Of a stretch of 64,000 nt of DNA, positions 7,225 to 50,150 are shown piece by piece; position 1 is the first letter of the stretch; the number at the start of each line of letters is the position of its first letter. The notes below the pieces were generated by a model that ran no database searches, was not told the origin of the DNA, and worked only from the letters and a program-made list of their open reading frames with translations. The stretch is from an uncultured delta proteobacterium (lineage in GTDB: Bacteria; Myxococcota_A; Polyangia; Polyangiales; Polyangiaceae). Both the position numbers and the translations under genes were made by a program. The stretch covers positions 832,001-896,000 of the forward strand of contig CAVOKF010000004.1 of the NCBI GenBank assembly GCA_963696385.1, read 5' to 3'.

Positions 7225-8196
7225 TTGCAACGGCCCATCGTGCAATGGAGCGACGTTCAAGTGTTTCTCGCGGTCGTCCGCGCCGGGACCGTTCGCGGCG
7301 CAGCCGCGGCGATGAAAGTCGACGCCTCGACCGTCTCGCGGCGGATTGCCGCGCTCGAGCAATCCGCAGGCATCCGCCTCTTTCAGCGCACGAACGCAGG
7401 GCTTCTGCCGACCGCCGCCGGAAAGGAGATGATCGAGTCGAGCGAGCGAGTAAGCCTCGAGTTCGAGCGGTTGGCGCGGCGTATGGCCGCGCACGACGAC
7501 CGTCTCGGCGGCCTCGTTCGCGTCACGTTCCCCGGCTCGTTCACGGCTCTGGTCCACGGCGCGGTGGCGCCGTTCGTGCGACGTCATCCGGCCATCGAAA
7601 TCGAGCTTTTGACTCTCGATGCGTTCGTCGACATCGACGGTCGGCACGCCGATGTCGCGATCCGCGTGGCTGCCCAACCTCCGGAGCATCTCGTGGGACG
7701 CCGCATCGCTGCGCTTGCGGCTGCGGTCTACGCATCGCAGAGCTACCTCGAACGCTGCAATGCGCCGATCGAGTCCACGGATCACGTGTGGGTCGATTGG
7801 GATCGGCGGTTGGCGTCGAAGCCGGCGTTCGCTTGGCTAGAGCAGCGCGTTCCCGCACGGCGGATCGTGGCACGAGGGTTGTCGACGTCCGACGTGCTGC
7901 ATGGGCTTGTCGCCGGGACGGGGATGGGCGCGCTTCCCTGCATCGTCGGCGATTCCGAACCCACCCTCGTCCGACTCTCGGATGCACCCCGGGAAGCCTG
8001 GTCGAGCGTGTGGCTGCTGACGCATGCGGAGCTCAAGCCGATAGCTCGCGTTCGCGCGGTCATCGCCCACTTGACGGACGCGCTGCGGACCGAACGGCCC
8101 CGCATCGAGGGGATCGGGACCCCTCACGGCATCAGAACGCACCGACCGCGCCGGCACTCATCGGTCCGACGTAAAGCGAAACCGGGCTCGATTTAG
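7225..8196 (+). CDS. LysR-family transcriptional regulator, divergent from the SDR gene
   Basis: N-terminal HTH (AAAAMKVDASTVSRRIAALE...LFQRT) and substrate domain (HPAIEIEL, ADVAIR). Start uncertain. Confidence 0.9.
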   Translation: MQRPIVQWSDVQVFLAVVRAGTVRGAAAAMKVDASTVSRRIAALEQSAGIRLFQRTNAGLLPTAAGKEMIESSERVSLEFERLARRMAAHDDRLGGLVRVTFPGSFTALVHGAVAPFVRRHPAIEIELLTLDAFVDIDGRHADVAIRVAAQPPEHLVGRRIAALAAAVYASQSYLERCNAPIESTDHVWVDWDRRLASKPAFAWLEQRVPARRIVARGLSTSDVLHGLVAGTGMGALPCIVGDSEPTLVRLSDAPREAWSSVWLLTHAELKPIARVRAVIAHLTDALRTERPRIEGIGTPHGIRTHRPRRHSSVRRKAKPGSI

Positions 8197-44117: not shown

Positions 44118-44966
44118 CTAAGGTGGCGTGGCGGCAAGCTCGCGGAGCGCCTGACGGACGAGCGCCTGAACGTCGCCCGGCACGGCACCGTCGTGACTCT
44201 TCGCTCGGCAAAGCAGCAGCGTCCGCTTGAGCGAATCGCATGCGGTGCGGCACCGAGAGCACGAGTCCACGTGCTCCTGCATGCGCGCGCACTCGTCGGG
44301 GCCGATCTCATCCTCTACGTAGCGCGAAAAAATGGGGACGATGTCTGGGCACCCTGGCGCGGCGGCCGCATCCGCGTCATCCAGAATTGCAGCAAGTCGC
44401 GAGCGGACGATGATCCGCGCCCGGTGCAGCCTGCTCTTCACGGCATCCACGCCGACCCCTAGAACCTGGGCAACCTCGGGCGCAGTCAGCCCCTCGACGT
44501 CTCGCAGGACGAGCACTTCGCGATACAGCGGCTCCAGATCGGTGATCGCCCTGTCGAGAGCCTTCGCTATCCGGTGATTTTCCGCAATCTCGTCCGGAGC
44601 GCTCCCCTCTGCTGCGAGTGCTCTCGTGTCATCGGAGTCGAGCGACACGAACTCCCGTGGAGCCGCGACGCGGGTCCGACGCTTCTTGATGCAAAAGCTG
44701 CGGGCGATCGCGAAGAGCCATGTCGAAAGCGACGATGCGCCGCGGAAGTCGCGCAGGCCGCGAGCTGCGGCGAGGAGTGTATCCTGCGCGATGTCTTTCG
44801 CGTCTTCCGGGTCGCTGCACATCTTGACGCCAAATCGATAGACCGCCGGAAGATACCGCTCCAGCAACACGGCAAGCGCGCGCTCGTCGCCCGCTTGAAA
44901 CGCGGCAAGCAATTTCTCATCCGAAGGGTCCAAGGCGAAACGTCTTTTAGCTCGCCCATGCCGCAT
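44118..44966 (-). CDS. ECF sigma factor fused to a C-terminal zinc-finger (zf-HC2/ZAS) domain
   Basis: Region 2 (DA.D..QD...F.G.S...TWL..IAR), region 4 (REVLVLRDVEGL...VKSRLHRAR), then C...HVDSCSRC (HxxxCxxC). Start uncertain. Confidence 0.88.
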   Translation of the reverse strand: MRHGRAKRRFALDPSDEKLLAAFQAGDERALAVLLERYLPAVYRFGVKMCSDPEDAKDIAQDTLLAAARGLRDFRGASSLSTWLFAIARSFCIKKRRTRVAAPREFVSLDSDDTRALAAEGSAPDEIAENHRIAKALDRAITDLEPLYREVLVLRDVEGLTAPEVAQVLGVGVDAVKSRLHRARIIVRSRLAAILDDADAAAAPGCPDIVPIFSRYVEDEIGPDECARMQEHVDSCSRCRTACDSLKRTLLLCRAKSHDGAVPGDVQALVRQALRELAATPP

Positions 44967-45679: not shown

Positions 45680-45973
45680 TTAGACGGCCCTCTTGGCTTC
45701 GACTTCGGCATCCCAATTCGGCCAAAGCAGCACCGCGGGGTGAACCTTGAGAGCGCGCGCCAACTTCTCGGCGCGCTCGGCTCCGAGCGTCGATCGCCCG
45801 CTTTCGATGCTCGAAAGGGTGGGCTGCGCGATGCCCGTCCGGTGCGCGAGCTCGGCTTGCGTCATCCCCTGCATCTCACGCGCGACGCGCACCGCGGCTC
45901 CGGGCGTCAGTCGGACGCGCACGCGCGACGGGACGTACTCGGTCGGCTTCGTCTTCTTGATCTTGGATGCCAT
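45680..45973 (-). CDS. XRE-family HTH antitoxin (HigA-like)
   Basis: RE.QGMTQAELA..TGI.Q..LS.IE.GR; AAGGAG Shine-Dalgarno; lies downstream of the toxin. Confidence 0.82.
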   Translation of the reverse strand: MASKIKKTKPTEYVPSRVRVRLTPGAAVRVAREMQGMTQAELAHRTGIAQPTLSSIESGRSTLGAERAEKLARALKVHPAVLLWPNWDAEVEAKRAV

Positions 45974-45993
45974 CGCGATCGTTCTCCTTTGCG

Positions 45994-46268
45994 TCAGGGT
46001 CGGTAGTCGTGCGGCGTGACACGTTCGTTACCGTCGTCGTATCCGCGTTCACCCGGTAGAGCACGCGCCACTGGTCGCTTAGACGCGACGATCGGAGGTG
46101 CGCGAGCTCGCCCGTGAGCTTCTCATCGTGCAAGCTCTTGAGCGCCCGAAGTCCGTGCGGGCCGGACTGACGGACGATCGCGCACCAAAACGCAAACTTC
46201 TCCGCAACGTGGTGGGGCAGCTTGTCGATCGCCTTGGCGGCTTGGCGCGCCTCGACGATCGTCCACAT
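45994..46268 (-). CDS. RelE/HigB-like toxin, frameshifted near 46027
   Basis: HDEKL.G....RSSRLS.QWRV.Y; the expected terminus ERVTPHDYRP-stop lies in another frame. Confidence 0.78.
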
Positions 46269-46438: not shown

Positions 46439-46978
46439 TCAAATAGGCTGCACCCTGTCGTCGCGCTCGATCTGCGCACGGGCCCAGGCTGGTCGTCGGT
46501 CAAACGCTGGCGCGGTCGTTGTCGTGATACCCCGCGTGCGCACGAGCGCGACGGCGAACCCACCGAGGGCGACGACCAGAAACGGCAGCGGGGCGAGCGC
46601 GAAGAACCGCAGCGCGACCCCGATGTTCACAAGCACGACCACGATGTTCGCCGCGAGGACCGACACGGGCACGACTTCCCCGCGACGGCGGAGGGCGTGC
46701 TCGACGAGCAAGTTGACGAGCCCGAGGCCGAGCGTCGTGAGTCCCACGCAGAAGCTGTCCCCGGTGAACGAGTCCAAAACCGAACGATGCTGGCCTCCGG
46801 AGACCGGATCGATGACCGTCGCCATTGAAGTCACGAGCTGCGCCTTCTCGGGCGTCATGGCCGGCGGGGCGATATGGTTGCCCACGGTATGGCCGAAGGC
46901 GATCATCACGAGCATCCAGCTCGCCACGCGGAACCACCGCGACCCAGGGACGCTCGGCATCTTCGGTTGCTTACTCAT
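46439..46978 (-). CDS. Hypothetical multi-pass membrane protein
   Basis: About four hydrophobic segments; divergent from the ECF-PheRS-like gene. Confidence 0.65.
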   Translation of the reverse strand: MSKQPKMPSVPGSRWFRVASWMLVMIAFGHTVGNHIAPPAMTPEKAQLVTSMATVIDPVSGGQHRSVLDSFTGDSFCVGLTTLGLGLVNLLVEHALRRRGEVVPVSVLAANIVVVLVNIGVALRFFALAPLPFLVVALGGFAVALVRTRGITTTTAPAFDRRPAWARAQIERDDRVQPI

Positions 46979-47250
46979 GTTCTCACCCGGTGACGGTCGT
47001 TGCGATACCGCGCCGGGGGAGGCAAGGAAGAAGGGAGCGAAGGGGCGGCGCGGTGGAACGAAGCGTTCGCGGGTCGCGCCAGCGGCGCACCCATCGAGCT
47101 GCGCCTATTCGGCTGCTCTGGGACGACGCGCCGCCGGCTGCCGTGCGGTGATGCCGATCAGGTTTGGCGAAGGATCTTGCTCGGCCCTATCGGTCGAAAA
47201 TAGGTCACATAAAGACCCGAGGGGTGTCGTTTCATCGGAGCTTGTCAGCC

Positions 47251-48534
47251 GTGATCACGATCGAAGCCACCAACGCCGAGCCCATCATGGCGCTCGTTCT
47301 GGGCGCGCGCGCGGGCGATCCGGCGGCCCTAGGCCGGCTGGTCGAGCTCACGCAGCAGATGGCGTACGGCGTTGCCTGGCAGGTTCTGCGCCGCGAGCCC
47401 GACGCGCGAGATGCAGTGCAGGACGCCTATCTGCGCGCGTTCCGGCGCCTGGGCGAGCTCGATCGGCCCGAGGCGTTCGCCGGTTGGTTGCGGCGCATCG
47501 TCGTCACAGTGGCGCTCAACCGGCGCCGGTGCAGCCGCGCCCAGTGGGTTTCGCTCGACGGCGTGACGGCGCCGCCCGTGCTCGATGCCCACGAGCAGAG
47601 CTGGACGGACGAACAGCAGCGCCTGCTGAGCCGGGCCGTCTTGCGCCTATCGCGGGAGGAGCGGCGTCTGTGCGAGCTGCACTACCACGGCGGCTGGAGC
47701 GCCGATCGGCTCGCGCAGAGCGCGGGCCTGCCGGCGGCGGCGATGCGGAAGCGCCTGCAGCGCCTGCGCGACAAGTTGAGAAGGGAGATCGAGATGGACG
47801 AGCAACGCAATCTGGGAAGTCATTCGGTTCCGGGAGATCTGCCGGCGAGCATCCTCGAGCTCTTGGCGCGGCCGCGTCTGGTCGACCTGCCGGAAAACCC
47901 TGTGGGAGCGACGCTCGCGACTCTGCTGGGCGCGTTCTCGGACTTCGCGCCCATCGAGCTCCCCGAGGAGGTCGATCTCGCGGCGGCGCTCGGGCGGCTG
48001 GGGGGCGACGCCGTGTACATCGATCGCTCCCAGCTGCAGCGCATCGAAGGTGAACGCGTGCTCCGCTACGACCTGACGTTGCCGCTCCTGCTGACTGTGC
48101 GTTGGGACGGTGCGCCGCAGAGGCTCACGGCCGCCGGGAAGGTCTACCGGCGCGAAATCGAGAGCGCGACGCGCCTCGAGGCTTTCCATCAGCTCGAGCT
48201 GTTCGTCATCGACGAGCGCCCAAAGGTCGATTCGTTCTGGCTCGCGGGCCGCATCCTCAGCGCCGTCGACCGCGCGCTGCGCCGTTCCGAGGTGCGGATG
48301 ACGCCGACCGACTATCCGATGTGCGCGCGCGCCTGGAGCCTCGACGTGCGCCGCGACGACGATTGGATCGAGCTCATGGCCTGGGGCGAGTACGCCGACT
48401 GGGTCGTGCGTGCCCTGGGCGCGGACCCGCGCCGGCACATCGCGCTCGGCGCGGGCTTCGGCCTCGAGCGCCTGGCCCTCCTGCGCCACGGCATCGACGA
48501 CATCCGCAAGGTGGCGACGGCCCGCGTGGCATGA
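47251..48534 (+). CDS. ECF sigma factor fused to a PheRS-alpha-like class II aaRS catalytic domain
   Basis: Region 2 DA.DAVQDAYL.AF..L..L..P.AF.GWL.RI and region 4 LS.EER....L.Y..G.S...LA, followed by GKVYRRE...FHQLE (motif 2), WIEL..WG and GFGLERLALLRHGIDDIR (motif 3). Confidence 0.88.
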   Translation: MITIEATNAEPIMALVLGARAGDPAALGRLVELTQQMAYGVAWQVLRREPDARDAVQDAYLRAFRRLGELDRPEAFAGWLRRIVVTVALNRRRCSRAQWVSLDGVTAPPVLDAHEQSWTDEQQRLLSRAVLRLSREERRLCELHYHGGWSADRLAQSAGLPAAAMRKRLQRLRDKLRREIEMDEQRNLGSHSVPGDLPASILELLARPRLVDLPENPVGATLATLLGAFSDFAPIELPEEVDLAAALGRLGGDAVYIDRSQLQRIEGERVLRYDLTLPLLLTVRWDGAPQRLTAAGKVYRREIESATRLEAFHQLELFVIDERPKVDSFWLAGRILSAVDRALRRSEVRMTPTDYPMCARAWSLDVRRDDDWIELMAWGEYADWVVRALGADPRRHIALGAGFGLERLALLRHGIDDIRKVATARVA

Positions 48535-48686
48535 GGGCGAAAGGCGGGGCAAGCCGGACACCTCGTGTTCTTGAGGGGGCAGAGGTGCGACGCGCCCGCC
48601 CCCGAATGCGCGATCGGCCTGGACCGGGATAGCCTGGCCCGGCGGGGATGAAGTAGTGTGGTGACTGGTATTTGGGGGAGGACTCG

Positions 48687-50150
48687 ATGGGAAGCGCGAT
48701 GGCAACGTCCAACTGGATACGGTGCCCCCAGTGCGACGGAGACGTTCTCGTCGCTGCGGAGTACGTCACGAAGTCGACGGTTCGAGCCCCCGCGTTGAAG
48801 TGCGCTCGATGCAAGACGCTTCATTTGGACGAGGCGGTTGCGCGTTCCCCCGCCGAGCGGGAGTCGGTGCGGATGGCCAAAGCGGAGCGGGCGGCCTTGT
48901 CCCCTTCGGACTCCGACCTCCCCGCCGAACCGCAAACCTTCGACGGTCCGGACCTCTATTCCCATACCTTCGAGGCGGTAGCCGACCGTGTGGGCCAGCC
49001 CGGCGGTAGGGTTTTGCTCGTGGACGACGAAGACATCGTGCGTACGGGCCATGGGCAGGTTCTCACCCGCGCGGGCTGGACGGTCGTCGCCGAAGGCAAT
49101 GCCGGGCATGCGGTGAGGCGCTTGGCGGTCGAGCGATTCGACGTGATCGTGACCGATCTGGTGATGCCCGCAATGAGCGGTCTCGACCTTCTTCGCACGG
49201 CGCGCGAGTACGATCTCGACGTCCCCGTCGTGATTCTCACCGGGCGTCCCGACGTGCAGTCCGCCATGGAGGCCATGCAATACGGCGCGTTTCGGTACAT
49301 CGACAAGCCCGTCCTGCCCGCAACGCTCGTCGACGTCGTCGGACGAGCCCGCGATTTGCACATGATGGCGCGGTTCAAGCGCGAGGCGCTGTCGGTCCTC
49401 GATCTGCCGAATCGCTCTCTGGGCGACCGTGCGGGCCTCGAGGTGCGTCTGTCGAGCGCGCTCGACTCGCTGTGGGTCGCCTATCAACCGATCGTCGCGA
49501 TCGGGCGCCGACAGGTCCTCGCGTACGAAGCACTCGTCCGCAACGAAGAGCCGACACTCCGGAGCCCCCTGGATCTTTTCGACGCAGCCGAGCGCTTGGG
49601 ACGCCTGCACGAAGTGGCTCGAAGGATACGCTCGCGCGTGGCCGCGGACGCCAGTGGACTTCCGGAGTCCGTGCTGCTCTTCGTCAATGTGCACCCGGAA
49701 GACCTCAATGACTTCGATCTCTTTTCCCCTTCGTCGGCCCTCAGCGAGATCGCGAACCGAGTGGTCCTCGAGCTCACCGAACGGGCCTCGCTGGATCGGG
49801 TGGCGGGACTGCAGACCCGCATCGGCAAGCTTCGCGAGCTCGGCTTTCGCATCGCGCTCGACGATCTCGGCGCAGGCTACGCCGGGCTTTCGAGTTTCAC
49901 TCTCTTGCAGCCGGATTACGTGAAGCTCGACGCCTCCTTGATCCGCTCGGTCGATGCGTCACCGCAAAAGCGCAGCATCGTCCGAGCCATGTTGCAGCTC
50001 GCAGCCGGCGATTTGAATTTGAAGACCATCTGCGAAGGGGTCGAGACGACCGCGGAGCGCGACACCCTCGTGGCGCTCGGCGGCGATTTGCTGCAGGGCT
50101 ACCTGTTCGCCCGTCCAAGCCGCGGATTCGTCGACCCGAAGTGGGATTAG
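48687..50150 (+). CDS. REC-EAL c-di-GMP phosphodiesterase with N-terminal CxxC...CxxC zinc-ribbon-like segment
   Basis: CPQC...CARC; receiver LLVDD/TDLVMP/KP; EAL motifs YEALVR, FVN, LELTE, DDLGAGY, VKLD, EGVE and QGY. Confidence 0.9.
   Translation: MGSAMATSNWIRCPQCDGDVLVAAEYVTKSTVRAPALKCARCKTLHLDEAVARSPAERESVRMAKAERAALSPSDSDLPAEPQTFDGPDLYSHTFEAVADRVGQPGGRVLLVDDEDIVRTGHGQVLTRAGWTVVAEGNAGHAVRRLAVERFDVIVTDLVMPAMSGLDLLRTAREYDLDVPVVILTGRPDVQSAMEAMQYGAFRYIDKPVLPATLVDVVGRARDLHMMARFKREALSVLDLPNRSLGDRAGLEVRLSSALDSLWVAYQPIVAIGRRQVLAYEALVRNEEPTLRSPLDLFDAAERLGRLHEVARRIRSRVAADASGLPESVLLFVNVHPEDLNDFDLFSPSSALSEIANRVVLELTERASLDRVAGLQTRIGKLRELGFRIALDDLGAGYAGLSSFTLLQPDYVKLDASLIRSVDASPQKRSIVRAMLQLAAGDLNLKTICEGVETTAERDTLVALGGDLLQGYLFARPSRGFVDPKWD

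Follow-up and report, generated by a model that had tools for sequence, protein, structure and literature searches.

Extracytoplasmic function (ECF) sigma factors form the third principal pathway of signalling in bacteria, and to our knowledge signal sensing that needs no anti-sigma factor has been worked out for just a handful of fused ECF extensions (SnoaL-like, TPR and Cys-rich). Among regulators built on the fold of class II aminoacyl-tRNA synthetases (aaRS), HisZ and the HisRS-like domain of GCN2 reuse a synthetase core, HisZ to regulate an enzyme and GCN2 a kinase. In BirA, a domain that forms adenylates and belongs to the class II aaRS/biotin-ligase fold class is joined to a DNA-binding module, and the bound adenylate is the regulatory signal. 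Among sigma factors, the ECF41 proteins (Ecf41 of Bacillus licheniformis and Rhodobacter sphaeroides; SigJ of Mycobacterium tuberculosis) are described, in passages of PMC3426412, as having no anti-sigma factor, a large C-terminal extension crucial for activity, and a single target. Here we describe a gene from an uncultured delta proteobacterium of the Polyangiaceae, found in a 64,000-nucleotide stretch of contig CAVOKF010000004.1 (the window). It encodes an ECF sigma factor fused to a diverged catalytic core of PheS, the alpha subunit of phenylalanyl-tRNA synthetase (PheRS), and like ECF41 it combines an ECF core and a large C-terminal extension with the lack of an anti-sigma factor. Our preferred reading, to which we give about even weight, is that it is a self-contained ECF sigma factor which regulates its own gene and is governed in cis by a PheS-derived domain that binds ATP and an amino-acid-like ligand.

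An uninterrupted open frame runs from 47164 to 48534 on the plus strand, and the in-frame GTG at 47251 gives a protein of 427 amino acids (aa) with the following parts:

47251..48534, plus strand: whole gene, ECF sigma factor plus PheS-like domain, 427 aa and stop codon (open reading frame, Pfam, NCBIfam)
47338..47535, plus strand: sigma region 2, residues 30-95 (PF04542 Sigma70_r2, 40.1 bits, cut-off 24)
47536..47619, plus strand: sigma2-sigma4 linker, residues 96-123, with a conserved PPVLD..E..W motif (alignment, model)
47620..47778, plus strand: sigma region 4, residues 124-176 (PF08281 Sigma70_r4_2, 20.4 bits, under the cut-off of 25.7)
47836..47889, plus strand: family-specific connector DLPASILELLARPRLVDL, residues 196-213, at the place of the PheS N-terminal coiled coil (alignment, model)
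47890..48531, plus strand: PheS-type class II aaRS catalytic core, residues 214-427 (PF01409, superposition on 3pco_A, phmmer against PheS chains 3e-13)

A first-pass annotation of this DNA had proposed that sigma regions 2 and 4 and a PheRS alpha-like core share one open reading frame (ORF), and the profile matches bear this out. The whole-sigma model TIGR02937 (sigma70-ECF, NCBIfam) covers residues 26-179 at 68.5 bits (cut-off 42.9), and tRNA-synt_2d (PF01409) covers residues 263-423 at 81.5 bits (cut-off 19.8, E 8.6e-23, profile positions 75-237 of 246). In the HMMER check of a single chain that the annotation had proposed, Sigma70_r2 and tRNA-synt_2d both exceed their cut-offs, with Sigma70_r4_2 reaching 20.4 bits against 25.7. 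The two sigma Pfam matches are separated by 28 residues and no further sigma domain is matched, leaving regions 2 and 4 only. In a search of solved structures, residues 14-180 align to the ECF sigma factors SigK, SigW and SigE, SigJ not being among the sigma chains matched in the PDB, and residues 266-420 align to residues 161-314 of PheS from Escherichia coli and Salmonella (E 3e-13). The motifs that the annotation had listed are all present and in register with PheS: NPV at 216-218, VLRYDLT at 270-276, GKVYRRE...FHQLE at 296-316, PTDYPMC at 352-358, WIEL..WG at 372-379 and GFGLERLALLRHGIDDIR at 402-419. Its description of the catalytic domain as complete stands for the core fold and motifs 1-3, but not for the HPARD-bearing stretch between motif 1 and LLRTHTS, which is shortened and lost. 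As it had also stated, there is no anticodon-binding domain and neither pheT nor an anti-sigma gene alongside: Pfam finds no anticodon-binding or coiled-coil domain in the 427-aa protein, the neighbour survey finds neither gene, and the genome's canonical PheS (301.1 bits, C5:857058) and only PheT B5 match (C5:865648) lie on a contig other than that of the window (C4). The protein is confirmed as an ECF sigma factor fused to a diverged PheS catalytic core; the database name of its homologues is only "sigma-70 family RNA polymerase sigma factor."

The predicted structure agrees with the profile matches. AlphaFold2 models were built from two alignments, one of 34 homologues and one of 77 sequences reaching down to 24% identity; between them the mean predicted local distance difference test score (pLDDT) rose from 83.6 to 88.8 and the predicted template modelling score (pTM) from 0.56 to 0.78. 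In VIA-align, model residues 214-427 superpose on residues 105-327 of E. coli PheS (3pco_A) with Z 24.0 and a root mean square deviation (rmsd) of 2.2 A over 210 aligned residues, the next matches being human mitochondrial PheRS, SepRS and PylRS. The best PDB matches in Foldseek are PheRS alpha chains (template modelling score on target 0.73-0.78, rmsd 2.5-3.2 A, ~214 columns). These superpositions confirm the class II PheS fold that the first-pass annotation had expected of the C-terminus. Linkers at residues 98-110 (pLDDT <50) and 190-194 stay disordered in the model, and the connector, residues 196-213, is modelled at pLDDT 86-95. That pTM rises while the linkers remain disordered is a hint of a favoured placement of the three modules relative to one another.

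Conservation in the alignments falls on the parts that would join the modules as well as on the sigma half. D54, Q57 and W79 of sigma region 2 are invariant or nearly so in the fusion family. Linker residues P109, L111, D112, E115 and W118 and connector residues P198, L204, P208 and L210 are invariant in the 34-sequence alignment, P208 also in 77/77 sequences, and the connector is found even in the members that are most PheS-like. Together with the rise in pTM, the conserved sigma2-sigma4 linker and connector hint at a contact in cis.

The fusion is an authentic and widespread gene. Near-identical DNA occurs in 20 runs of 14 studies of soil, peat and wetland; no RNA dataset is among the runs listed. 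Contigs from four other studies bridge the junction (~47815) with 0 differences:

47100-47883: junction-crossing contig X5, 0 differences
47128-48071: junction-crossing contig X6, 0 differences
47610-48067: junction-crossing contig X7, 0 differences
47562-47838: junction-crossing contig X9, 0 differences

The chance that unrelated genes were joined here by mis-assembly, or that the gene is broken by a frameshift, is negligible given these contigs, the independent assembly of the same architecture in 80 loci and 117 protein clusters, and the congruent trees of the two halves described below. In a collection of 5.8 billion proteins, the best 120 clusters (55-90% identity, ~420 aa) all match PF01409, 117 of them together with PF04542; the three without a PF04542 match are 318-341 aa long. 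A search of 1.84 billion representatives with the C-terminal domain gave 799 matches at E <=0.001 and 140 at E <=1e-10, the 140 including canonical PheS. Sigma region 2 and tRNA-synt_2d occur together in 27/27 scanned representatives of at least 412 aa that are not ordinary PheS. Overall identity to the window protein is 24-45% among aligned representatives, the members at 24-31% having an aaRS part that is much closer to PheS (PF01409 up to 175 bits). In the ESM Atlas the architecture is found in three clusters, of 92, 152 and 57 members.

Across genomes, a search that the first-pass annotation had suggested, 92 relatives were found and 80 loci kept. As labelled, 58 of these are Acidobacteriota (Vicinamibacterales, Bryobacterales, Solibacteraceae, Terriglobia and the isolate Paludibaculum fermentans, L098), 14 Polyangiaceae/Myxococcales and 3 Steroidobacteraceae, the rest being 3 "proteobacterium," 1 Pseudomonadota and 1 Planctomycetota. 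The fusion is conserved in Polyangiaceae, Acidobacteriota and Steroidobacteraceae. Within the window's own family, strong matches to the C-terminal domain (E <=1e-40) occur in 14/383 genomes, a search that included genomes G300 and G261, both with PheS-level matches only and not drawn on elsewhere; in this set one copy is interrupted by stops and another genome carries the gene twice. A phylum sample was positive for the window's own genome alone (1/401), and 4/201 genomes sampled from the order around one Vicinamibacterales carrier were positive. From this patchy distribution we take the gene to be accessory and to have moved between phyla. Genome G314, of the window's genus, has two fusion copies (C6:115271-115978 and C29:24636-25346), each 72% identical to the window's C-terminal domain.

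To place the fusion cores relative to PheS, a comparison also proposed in the first-pass annotation, a maximum likelihood tree was generated from 34 fusion cores and 11 PheS sequences. A single branch separates all 34 cores from the bacterial-type PheS with a support of 100/100. The window protein belongs to a derived, long-stemmed clade of 20 representatives, and P0183 and P0186 lie nearest to PheS. The tree of the sigma halves gives the identical 20-versus-14 split, with 0 mismatches and a support of 0.996. As the two trees agree, the halves have diverged together and the fusion is old. The sigma half shares 30-34% identity with its nearest stand-alone ECFs, and the nearest paralogue in its own genome is 30% identical. 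On these trees the catalytic core is most simply derived once from the bacterial PheS alpha subunit, and one old fusion is inherited as a unit.

The profile scores place the core in the same way. The bacterial PheS model (TIGR00468) reaches 75.1 bits, the archaeal-type model 48.7 and the mitochondrial model 34.6, each far short of its cut-off, and the fusion cores branch from bacterial-type PheS. The fold and the colinear motifs 1, 2 and 3 are shared with bacterial PheS (TIGR00468, PF01409, E. coli 3PCO), yet the score is far from the TIGR00468 cut-off of 237.45; the coiled coil PF02912, present in 5/6 scanned PheS representatives (not in P0196), is absent; and there is no adjacent pheT and no HPARD stretch. 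Whereas HisZ and GCN2 are of the HisRS type, this core is of the PheS type, and tRNA-synt_2b matches only at E 0.2 (12.1 bits, cut-off 29.3). SrmL, the "PheS-related mystery ligase" (NF051887), is another PheS-derived paralogue whose role is not known, and no paper under its name appeared in the full-text search. Its model scores 74.4 bits over positions 97-228 (132/349) against a cut-off of 300, and 130.4 bits for the basal fusion P0183; in every member tested the PheS model scores as well or better.

Some relatives depart from the two-part architecture. Among eight stand-alone forms of ~250 aa that were looked up, P0126, P0134 and P0154 each cluster at 90% with a member of 413-425 aa, and contigs of 0.9-1.5 kb carry 5 of the 8. 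PheS-like domains with neither a sigma half nor a full-length partner are P0122 (251 aa, 12-kb contig) and P0138 (262 aa, 67.7-kb contig, a metagenome-assembled genome of Phycisphaeraceae); P0122 and three other short forms start at the conserved Met of EIEMDEQ. P0122 and P0138 may be split genes, products of an internal start or broken genes. Short sigma-only matches at an identity of at least 48% are mostly fragments, and the sigma-only P0280, P0284, P0297, P0300 and P0301, which lie on long contigs, are possibly split or broken genes. P0246 (596 aa, on a 16.9 kb metagenome contig) has a GNAT acetyltransferase domain added C-terminal of the PheS-like core, a hint of chemistry downstream of the core in that branch.

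The residues that line the predicted active site were counted in the 34 fusion representatives and 11 PheS sequences, with E. coli numbering from the alignment to PheS. The relevant stretches of the window protein are as follows:

48064..48078, plus strand: RYDLT, counterpart of PheS RT(H/Q)TS at the amino-acid site (aligns to E. coli R167-S171)
48136..48198, plus strand: class II motif 2, GKVYRRE...FHQLE, residues 296-316 (R300 aligns to E. coli R195)
48304..48324, plus strand: PTDYPMC, counterpart of the ring-binding stretch PSYFPFT of PheS (Y355, M357 and C358 correspond to E. coli F248, F250 and T251)
48448..48471, plus strand: class II motif 3, GAGFGLER, residues 400-407 (R407 corresponds to E. 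coli R301, G400 to A294)

The motif 2 Arg (R300) is kept in 34/34 fusion representatives and the motif 3 Arg (R407) in 33/34. The FHQxE stretch has F312 in 34/34 representatives, H313 in 33/34 and Q314 in 30/34, with Glu in 26 and Asp in 8 at position 316. The ATP-site residues are under strong constraint, which would fit a ligand-binding domain and implies that nucleotide binding is under selection. This conservation also bears on the possibility that the core is a pseudoenzyme scaffold, a protein-protein module that senses no ligand and works by homodimerization through motif 1, docking of free PheT or stabilization of the sigma half. We consider it quite unlikely. Motif 1, which forms the dimer interface in class II enzymes, has an invariant Pro217 (77/77 sequences), and the loss of the HPARD stretch and the drift at some active-site positions would suit a scaffold. 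So would the ECF41 extension, which is needed for activity though no ligand is known for it in the passages of PMC3426412 that describe it. Retention of both ATP-binding arginines and of FHQxE down to 24-31% identity, however, is hard to explain without a nucleotide ligand.

The amino-acid side of the site has changed where the nucleotide side has not. D274 stands at the His/Gln position of PheS (E. coli Q169), and Asp or Glu is found there in 20/20 representatives of the same clade. The positions of F248, F250 and T251 vary across the fusion family but are fixed in the 11 PheS sequences (Phe at F248 in 11/11 and at F250 in 10/11); the window protein has Y355, M357 and C358. At the position of Ala294, 29/34 fusions have Gly, as does this protein (G400), against Ala in 11/11 PheS. 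Changing Ala294 to Gly admits para-substituted phenylalanines. The same change is used to relax PheS specificity in counter-selection markers (for example PMC7136838). His has given way to Asp, Phe/Phe to Tyr/Met and Ala294 to Gly, a remodelling of the amino-acid pocket that makes phenylalanine doubtful as the ligand; we read the second ligand as probably a compound other than phenylalanine, and one that changes from subfamily to subfamily. Catalysis may occur but is not certain.

The first-pass annotation had also raised a GCN2-like sensor, in which the core would bind deacylated tRNA(Phe) or its CCA end and couple the sigma factor to translation. The fold is that of a tRNA-charging enzyme, and regulatory aaRS-like domains that bind tRNA do exist, the HisRS-like domain of GCN2 being one. 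In PheRS, the elements that hold the tRNA are the alpha coiled coil and the beta subunit. Because both are absent here, PF02912 being missing from this protein though present in PheS representatives and no PheT-type anticodon-binding domain being fused or adjacent, the analysis lends tRNA sensing no support; in addition, it is the amino-acid pocket and not a tRNA surface that diversifies between subfamilies. We rate this option as very improbable.

The region upstream of the gene carries a bipartite motif that is shared by the family. Its elements in the window, together with the likely ribosome-binding site, are:

47204..47209, plus strand: GTCACA, -35-like element of the family's bipartite promoter (motif in 75/77 loci)
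47224..47229, plus strand: GTGTCG, -10-like element (family consensus GTGTCyTT), at the fixed 16-nt spacing
47237..47240, plus strand: GGAG, likely ribosome-binding site, 10 nt before the GTG (sequence reading)

In a search of ~260 nt upstream of each gene, GTCAC(A/G)nT-N12-GTGTC(C/T)TT was found in 75 of 77 distinct regions, with a spacer of 16 nt between GTCAC and TGTC in 73/75 sites. The controls gave 0 sites on the reverse complement and 0/77 in each of two in-gene windows. The motif is present alike in the Myxococcota, Acidobacteriota and Steroidobacteraceae copies, and its layout reads as that of ECF promoters. Simple sigma-70 and terminator scans around the gene found nothing. The conserved promoter at 47204-47229 supports the start at GTG 47251 that the first-pass annotation had chosen; the longer ORF from TTG 47164 is ruled out, as that codon lies upstream of the promoter. 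As the promoter travels with the gene across phyla, it is most simply read by the gene's own product, which would amount to positive autoregulation.

Here too ECF41 offers the nearest comparison. Passages of PMC3426412 describe a highly conserved promoter and a very small target set for it, and the relevant entries of PMC7826278 report TGTCACA at -35 for ECF41 and ECF288, nearly the same as here, and at -10 CGTC for ECF41 and TGTCTAAT for ECF288. The -10 element of ECF41 thus differs from the GTGTCyTT of this family. The extension differs as well: it is SnoaL-like in ECF41, whereas here it is PF01409, with no SnoaL-type family among the Pfam matches to E 1. ECF41 genes adjoin carboxymuconolactone decarboxylase, oxidoreductase or epimerase (COE) genes, and no such cluster recurs in the 80 loci.

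Several observations weigh against the reading of an autoregulated sigma factor under ligand control. With respect to targets, the only conserved copy of the promoter found is the gene's own. The strict pattern finds the own promoter only in 5/5 Acidobacteriota genomes; with one mismatch allowed, these genomes give 5 more matches against 2 in controls, with no recurring gene downstream, and five Polyangiaceae genomes give 3 pattern sites without a common target. Reading of the motif by this sigma factor rather than by another is itself an inferential step. On the side of the protein, sigma region 4 reaches only 20.4 bits on PF08281, under the cut-off of 25.7 (relatives score 30-58.5 bits and the region is helical in the model), and the rise in pTM is indirect, the touching surfaces not being visible in it. 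In the active site, the HPARD-bearing stretch is lost in all fusions, only 12/20 of the clade have Glu or Asp two residues past the motif 2 Arg, and Gln314 is replaced in 4/34 fusions. With some active-site positions of PheS lost, ligand binding may occur here without catalysis.

A weight-matrix scan of the window's own genome gives two sites of at least 18 bits, the own promoter scoring 20.4 bits. The best genome-wide match, 24.4 bits on the minus strand at C3:517569 (0.047 per genome expected by chance), lies in locus L117 at ~8036-8070, 132 nt before a Peptidase_S66 gene (LD-carboxypeptidase/MccF family; L117:6989-7906, minus strand). The orthologues in five other carriers have no such site before them, with best scores <0, and we do not claim this gene as a target. 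Equal weak matrix matches also fall in near-identical stretches of at least 95 nt that occur at eight or more places in the genome (C3:1905, C4:1133582, C4:1168343, C5:1498676, C5:1525906, C7:1351219, C7:1376668 and C7:1430259), probably a multi-copy insertion element.

In another reading the enzyme is itself the output. It could be a working ligase, or it could bind a PheRS-directed natural product or phenylalanine analogue as a decoy, with the sigma half providing only self-induction by positive feedback in a mobile one-gene module whose regulon is its own product. Paralogues of aaRS often are antibiotic self-resistance genes. The finding of no conserved target besides the gene's own promoter would fit, as would ATP-site residues conserved as in an enzyme, the extra GNAT domain of the P0246 branch, which suggests downstream chemistry, and a patchy, accessory gene that crosses phyla with its promoter (14/383, 4/201 and 1/401 genomes). 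Against it, genes for an acceptor, a carrier protein or biosynthesis are not conserved in the vicinity, pattern searches would miss target promoters that are weaker or divergent, and the conservation of the sigma2-sigma4 linker and the connector is left unexplained. On balance we think it unlikely.

Under our preferred reading of an ECF sigma factor controlled in cis by its own PheS-derived domain, the gene's ECF-type promoter, GTCACA-N16-TGTC, would drive a protein of sigma regions 2 and 4, the connector and the PheS-derived core. The core has lost the parts of PheS that serve for holding tRNA and pairing with PheT, while the residues of motifs 2 and 3 that bind ATP are retained and the amino-acid pocket is rebuilt. 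We infer that it binds ATP and an amino-acid-like ligand other than phenylalanine, from which it may form an adenylate. The bound state would act in cis on sigma2, sigma4 and the conserved linker and so set how the sigma factor performs with RNA polymerase. By analogy, this logic would combine that of ECF41, a fused extension replacing the anti-sigma factor, with the chemistry of BirA, an adenylate-forming domain governing a DNA-binding module. BirA is not a sequence relative, as there is no BPL/LplA match here, and it is a winged-helix repressor and not a sigma factor.

A more specific version, which we put forward tentatively and regard as possible rather than probable, is that the sigma factor makes its own signal. 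The core would condense ATP with an amino acid or metabolite other than phenylalanine and, because there is no tRNA to receive the product, hold the aminoacyl-adenylate, which would turn the activity of the sigma factor on or off. Depending on their pockets, subfamilies would then respond to different amino acids, analogues or aaRS-directed antibiotics. More boldly, an adenylate made on the initiating holoenzyme might be used as the first nucleotide, giving a 5'-aminoacylated transcript.

ECF sigma factors with a fused regulatory extension are known as such, but a fused module of this sort appears not to have been described before for any sigma factor. Full-text literature searches and the ECF classification papers, with their supplements in part, hold no description of an aaRS-type extension or of a sigma-PheS fusion. 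The main text of the ECF classification 2.0 (PMC7826278) does not contain "tRNA," "synthetase" or "ligase," and 16/16 "tRNA" passages in the portion of its supplement covered concern neighbouring genes and not fused domains. Neither Pinto et al. 2020 (PMC7671368) nor the 2022 review of non-canonical ECFs (PMC8999054) has an aaRS-type extension in the searched text. The first-pass annotation, which knew of no characterised example, agrees with these texts, though further parts of the supplements may list the architecture. Two groups from the same bacterial family, ECF220 and ECF276s3 (Polyangiaceae/Deltaproteobacteria), also combine an ECF with a C-terminal extension, according to entries of PMC7826278. 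We do not assign the protein to either of them. In those entries, ECF220 is described without a Pfam domain, with about one transmembrane helix and with conserved membrane proteins at +1/-1, whereas this protein has PF01409 and its neighbour is not conserved; for ECF276, zinc-finger anti-sigma factors are reported at +1, and no such conserved neighbour is found here.

The surroundings of the gene are not conserved. The nearest genes in the window are:

46439-46978, other strand: membrane-protein ORF, 179 aa, upstream of the fusion gene (recurs in no other locus)
48672-50150, plus strand: receiver and EAL domains (cyclic di-GMP phosphodiesterase type) with a Cys-rich N-terminus, 138 nt downstream (not conserved beside relatives)

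There is no terminator-like site between the fusion gene and the receiver-EAL gene, and other neighbours in the window are PPK2 and Uma2. None of the window's own neighbours recurs beside the relatives in the 80 loci, and ORF clustering across these loci finds no conserved neighbour. The clusters it yields are antisense shadows of the gene itself, and a PadR gene and a MacB/FtsX permease in 14-19 loci, both of which we take to be multi-copy families in Acidobacteriota. A block of ATP-dependent DNA ligase, DJ-1/PfpI, 5'-3' exonuclease and Lhr-type helicase genes accompanies the gene in 6-9 closely related loci labelled Vicinamibacterales or Acidobacteriota (L051, L060, L061, L065, L069, L076, L079, L080 and L089), and is probably lineage synteny and not a functional link.

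Two further arrangements lie upstream of the fusion gene in the window. A second ECF sigma factor (Sigma70_r2 and r4_2) with a C-terminal zf-HC2 occupies one 282-aa ORF at 44118-44966 on the minus strand, 2.3 kb away; as zf-HC2 is a zinc finger of the anti-sigma type, this ORF may be a sigma/anti-sigma fusion. At 45680-46268, also on the minus strand, a 97-aa XRE-type helix-turn-helix protein overlaps a 130-aa ORF without a Pfam match, a layout like that of toxin-antitoxin genes.

If the self-made signal holds true, the protein would rank as the first enzyme-sigma "trigger factor," with a BirA-like logic wired into RNA polymerase. The family is large, occurs in abundant soil phyla and carries a compact, portable promoter, and it could supply an orthogonal ligand-controlled sigma/promoter pair for synthetic biology. 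PheS would, if control in cis is true, join the short list of synthetase cores reused for regulation, and an aaRS catalytic core as the built-in extension of a sigma factor would be a new sensing principle, one that ties ATP and amino-acid chemistry directly to promoter choice.

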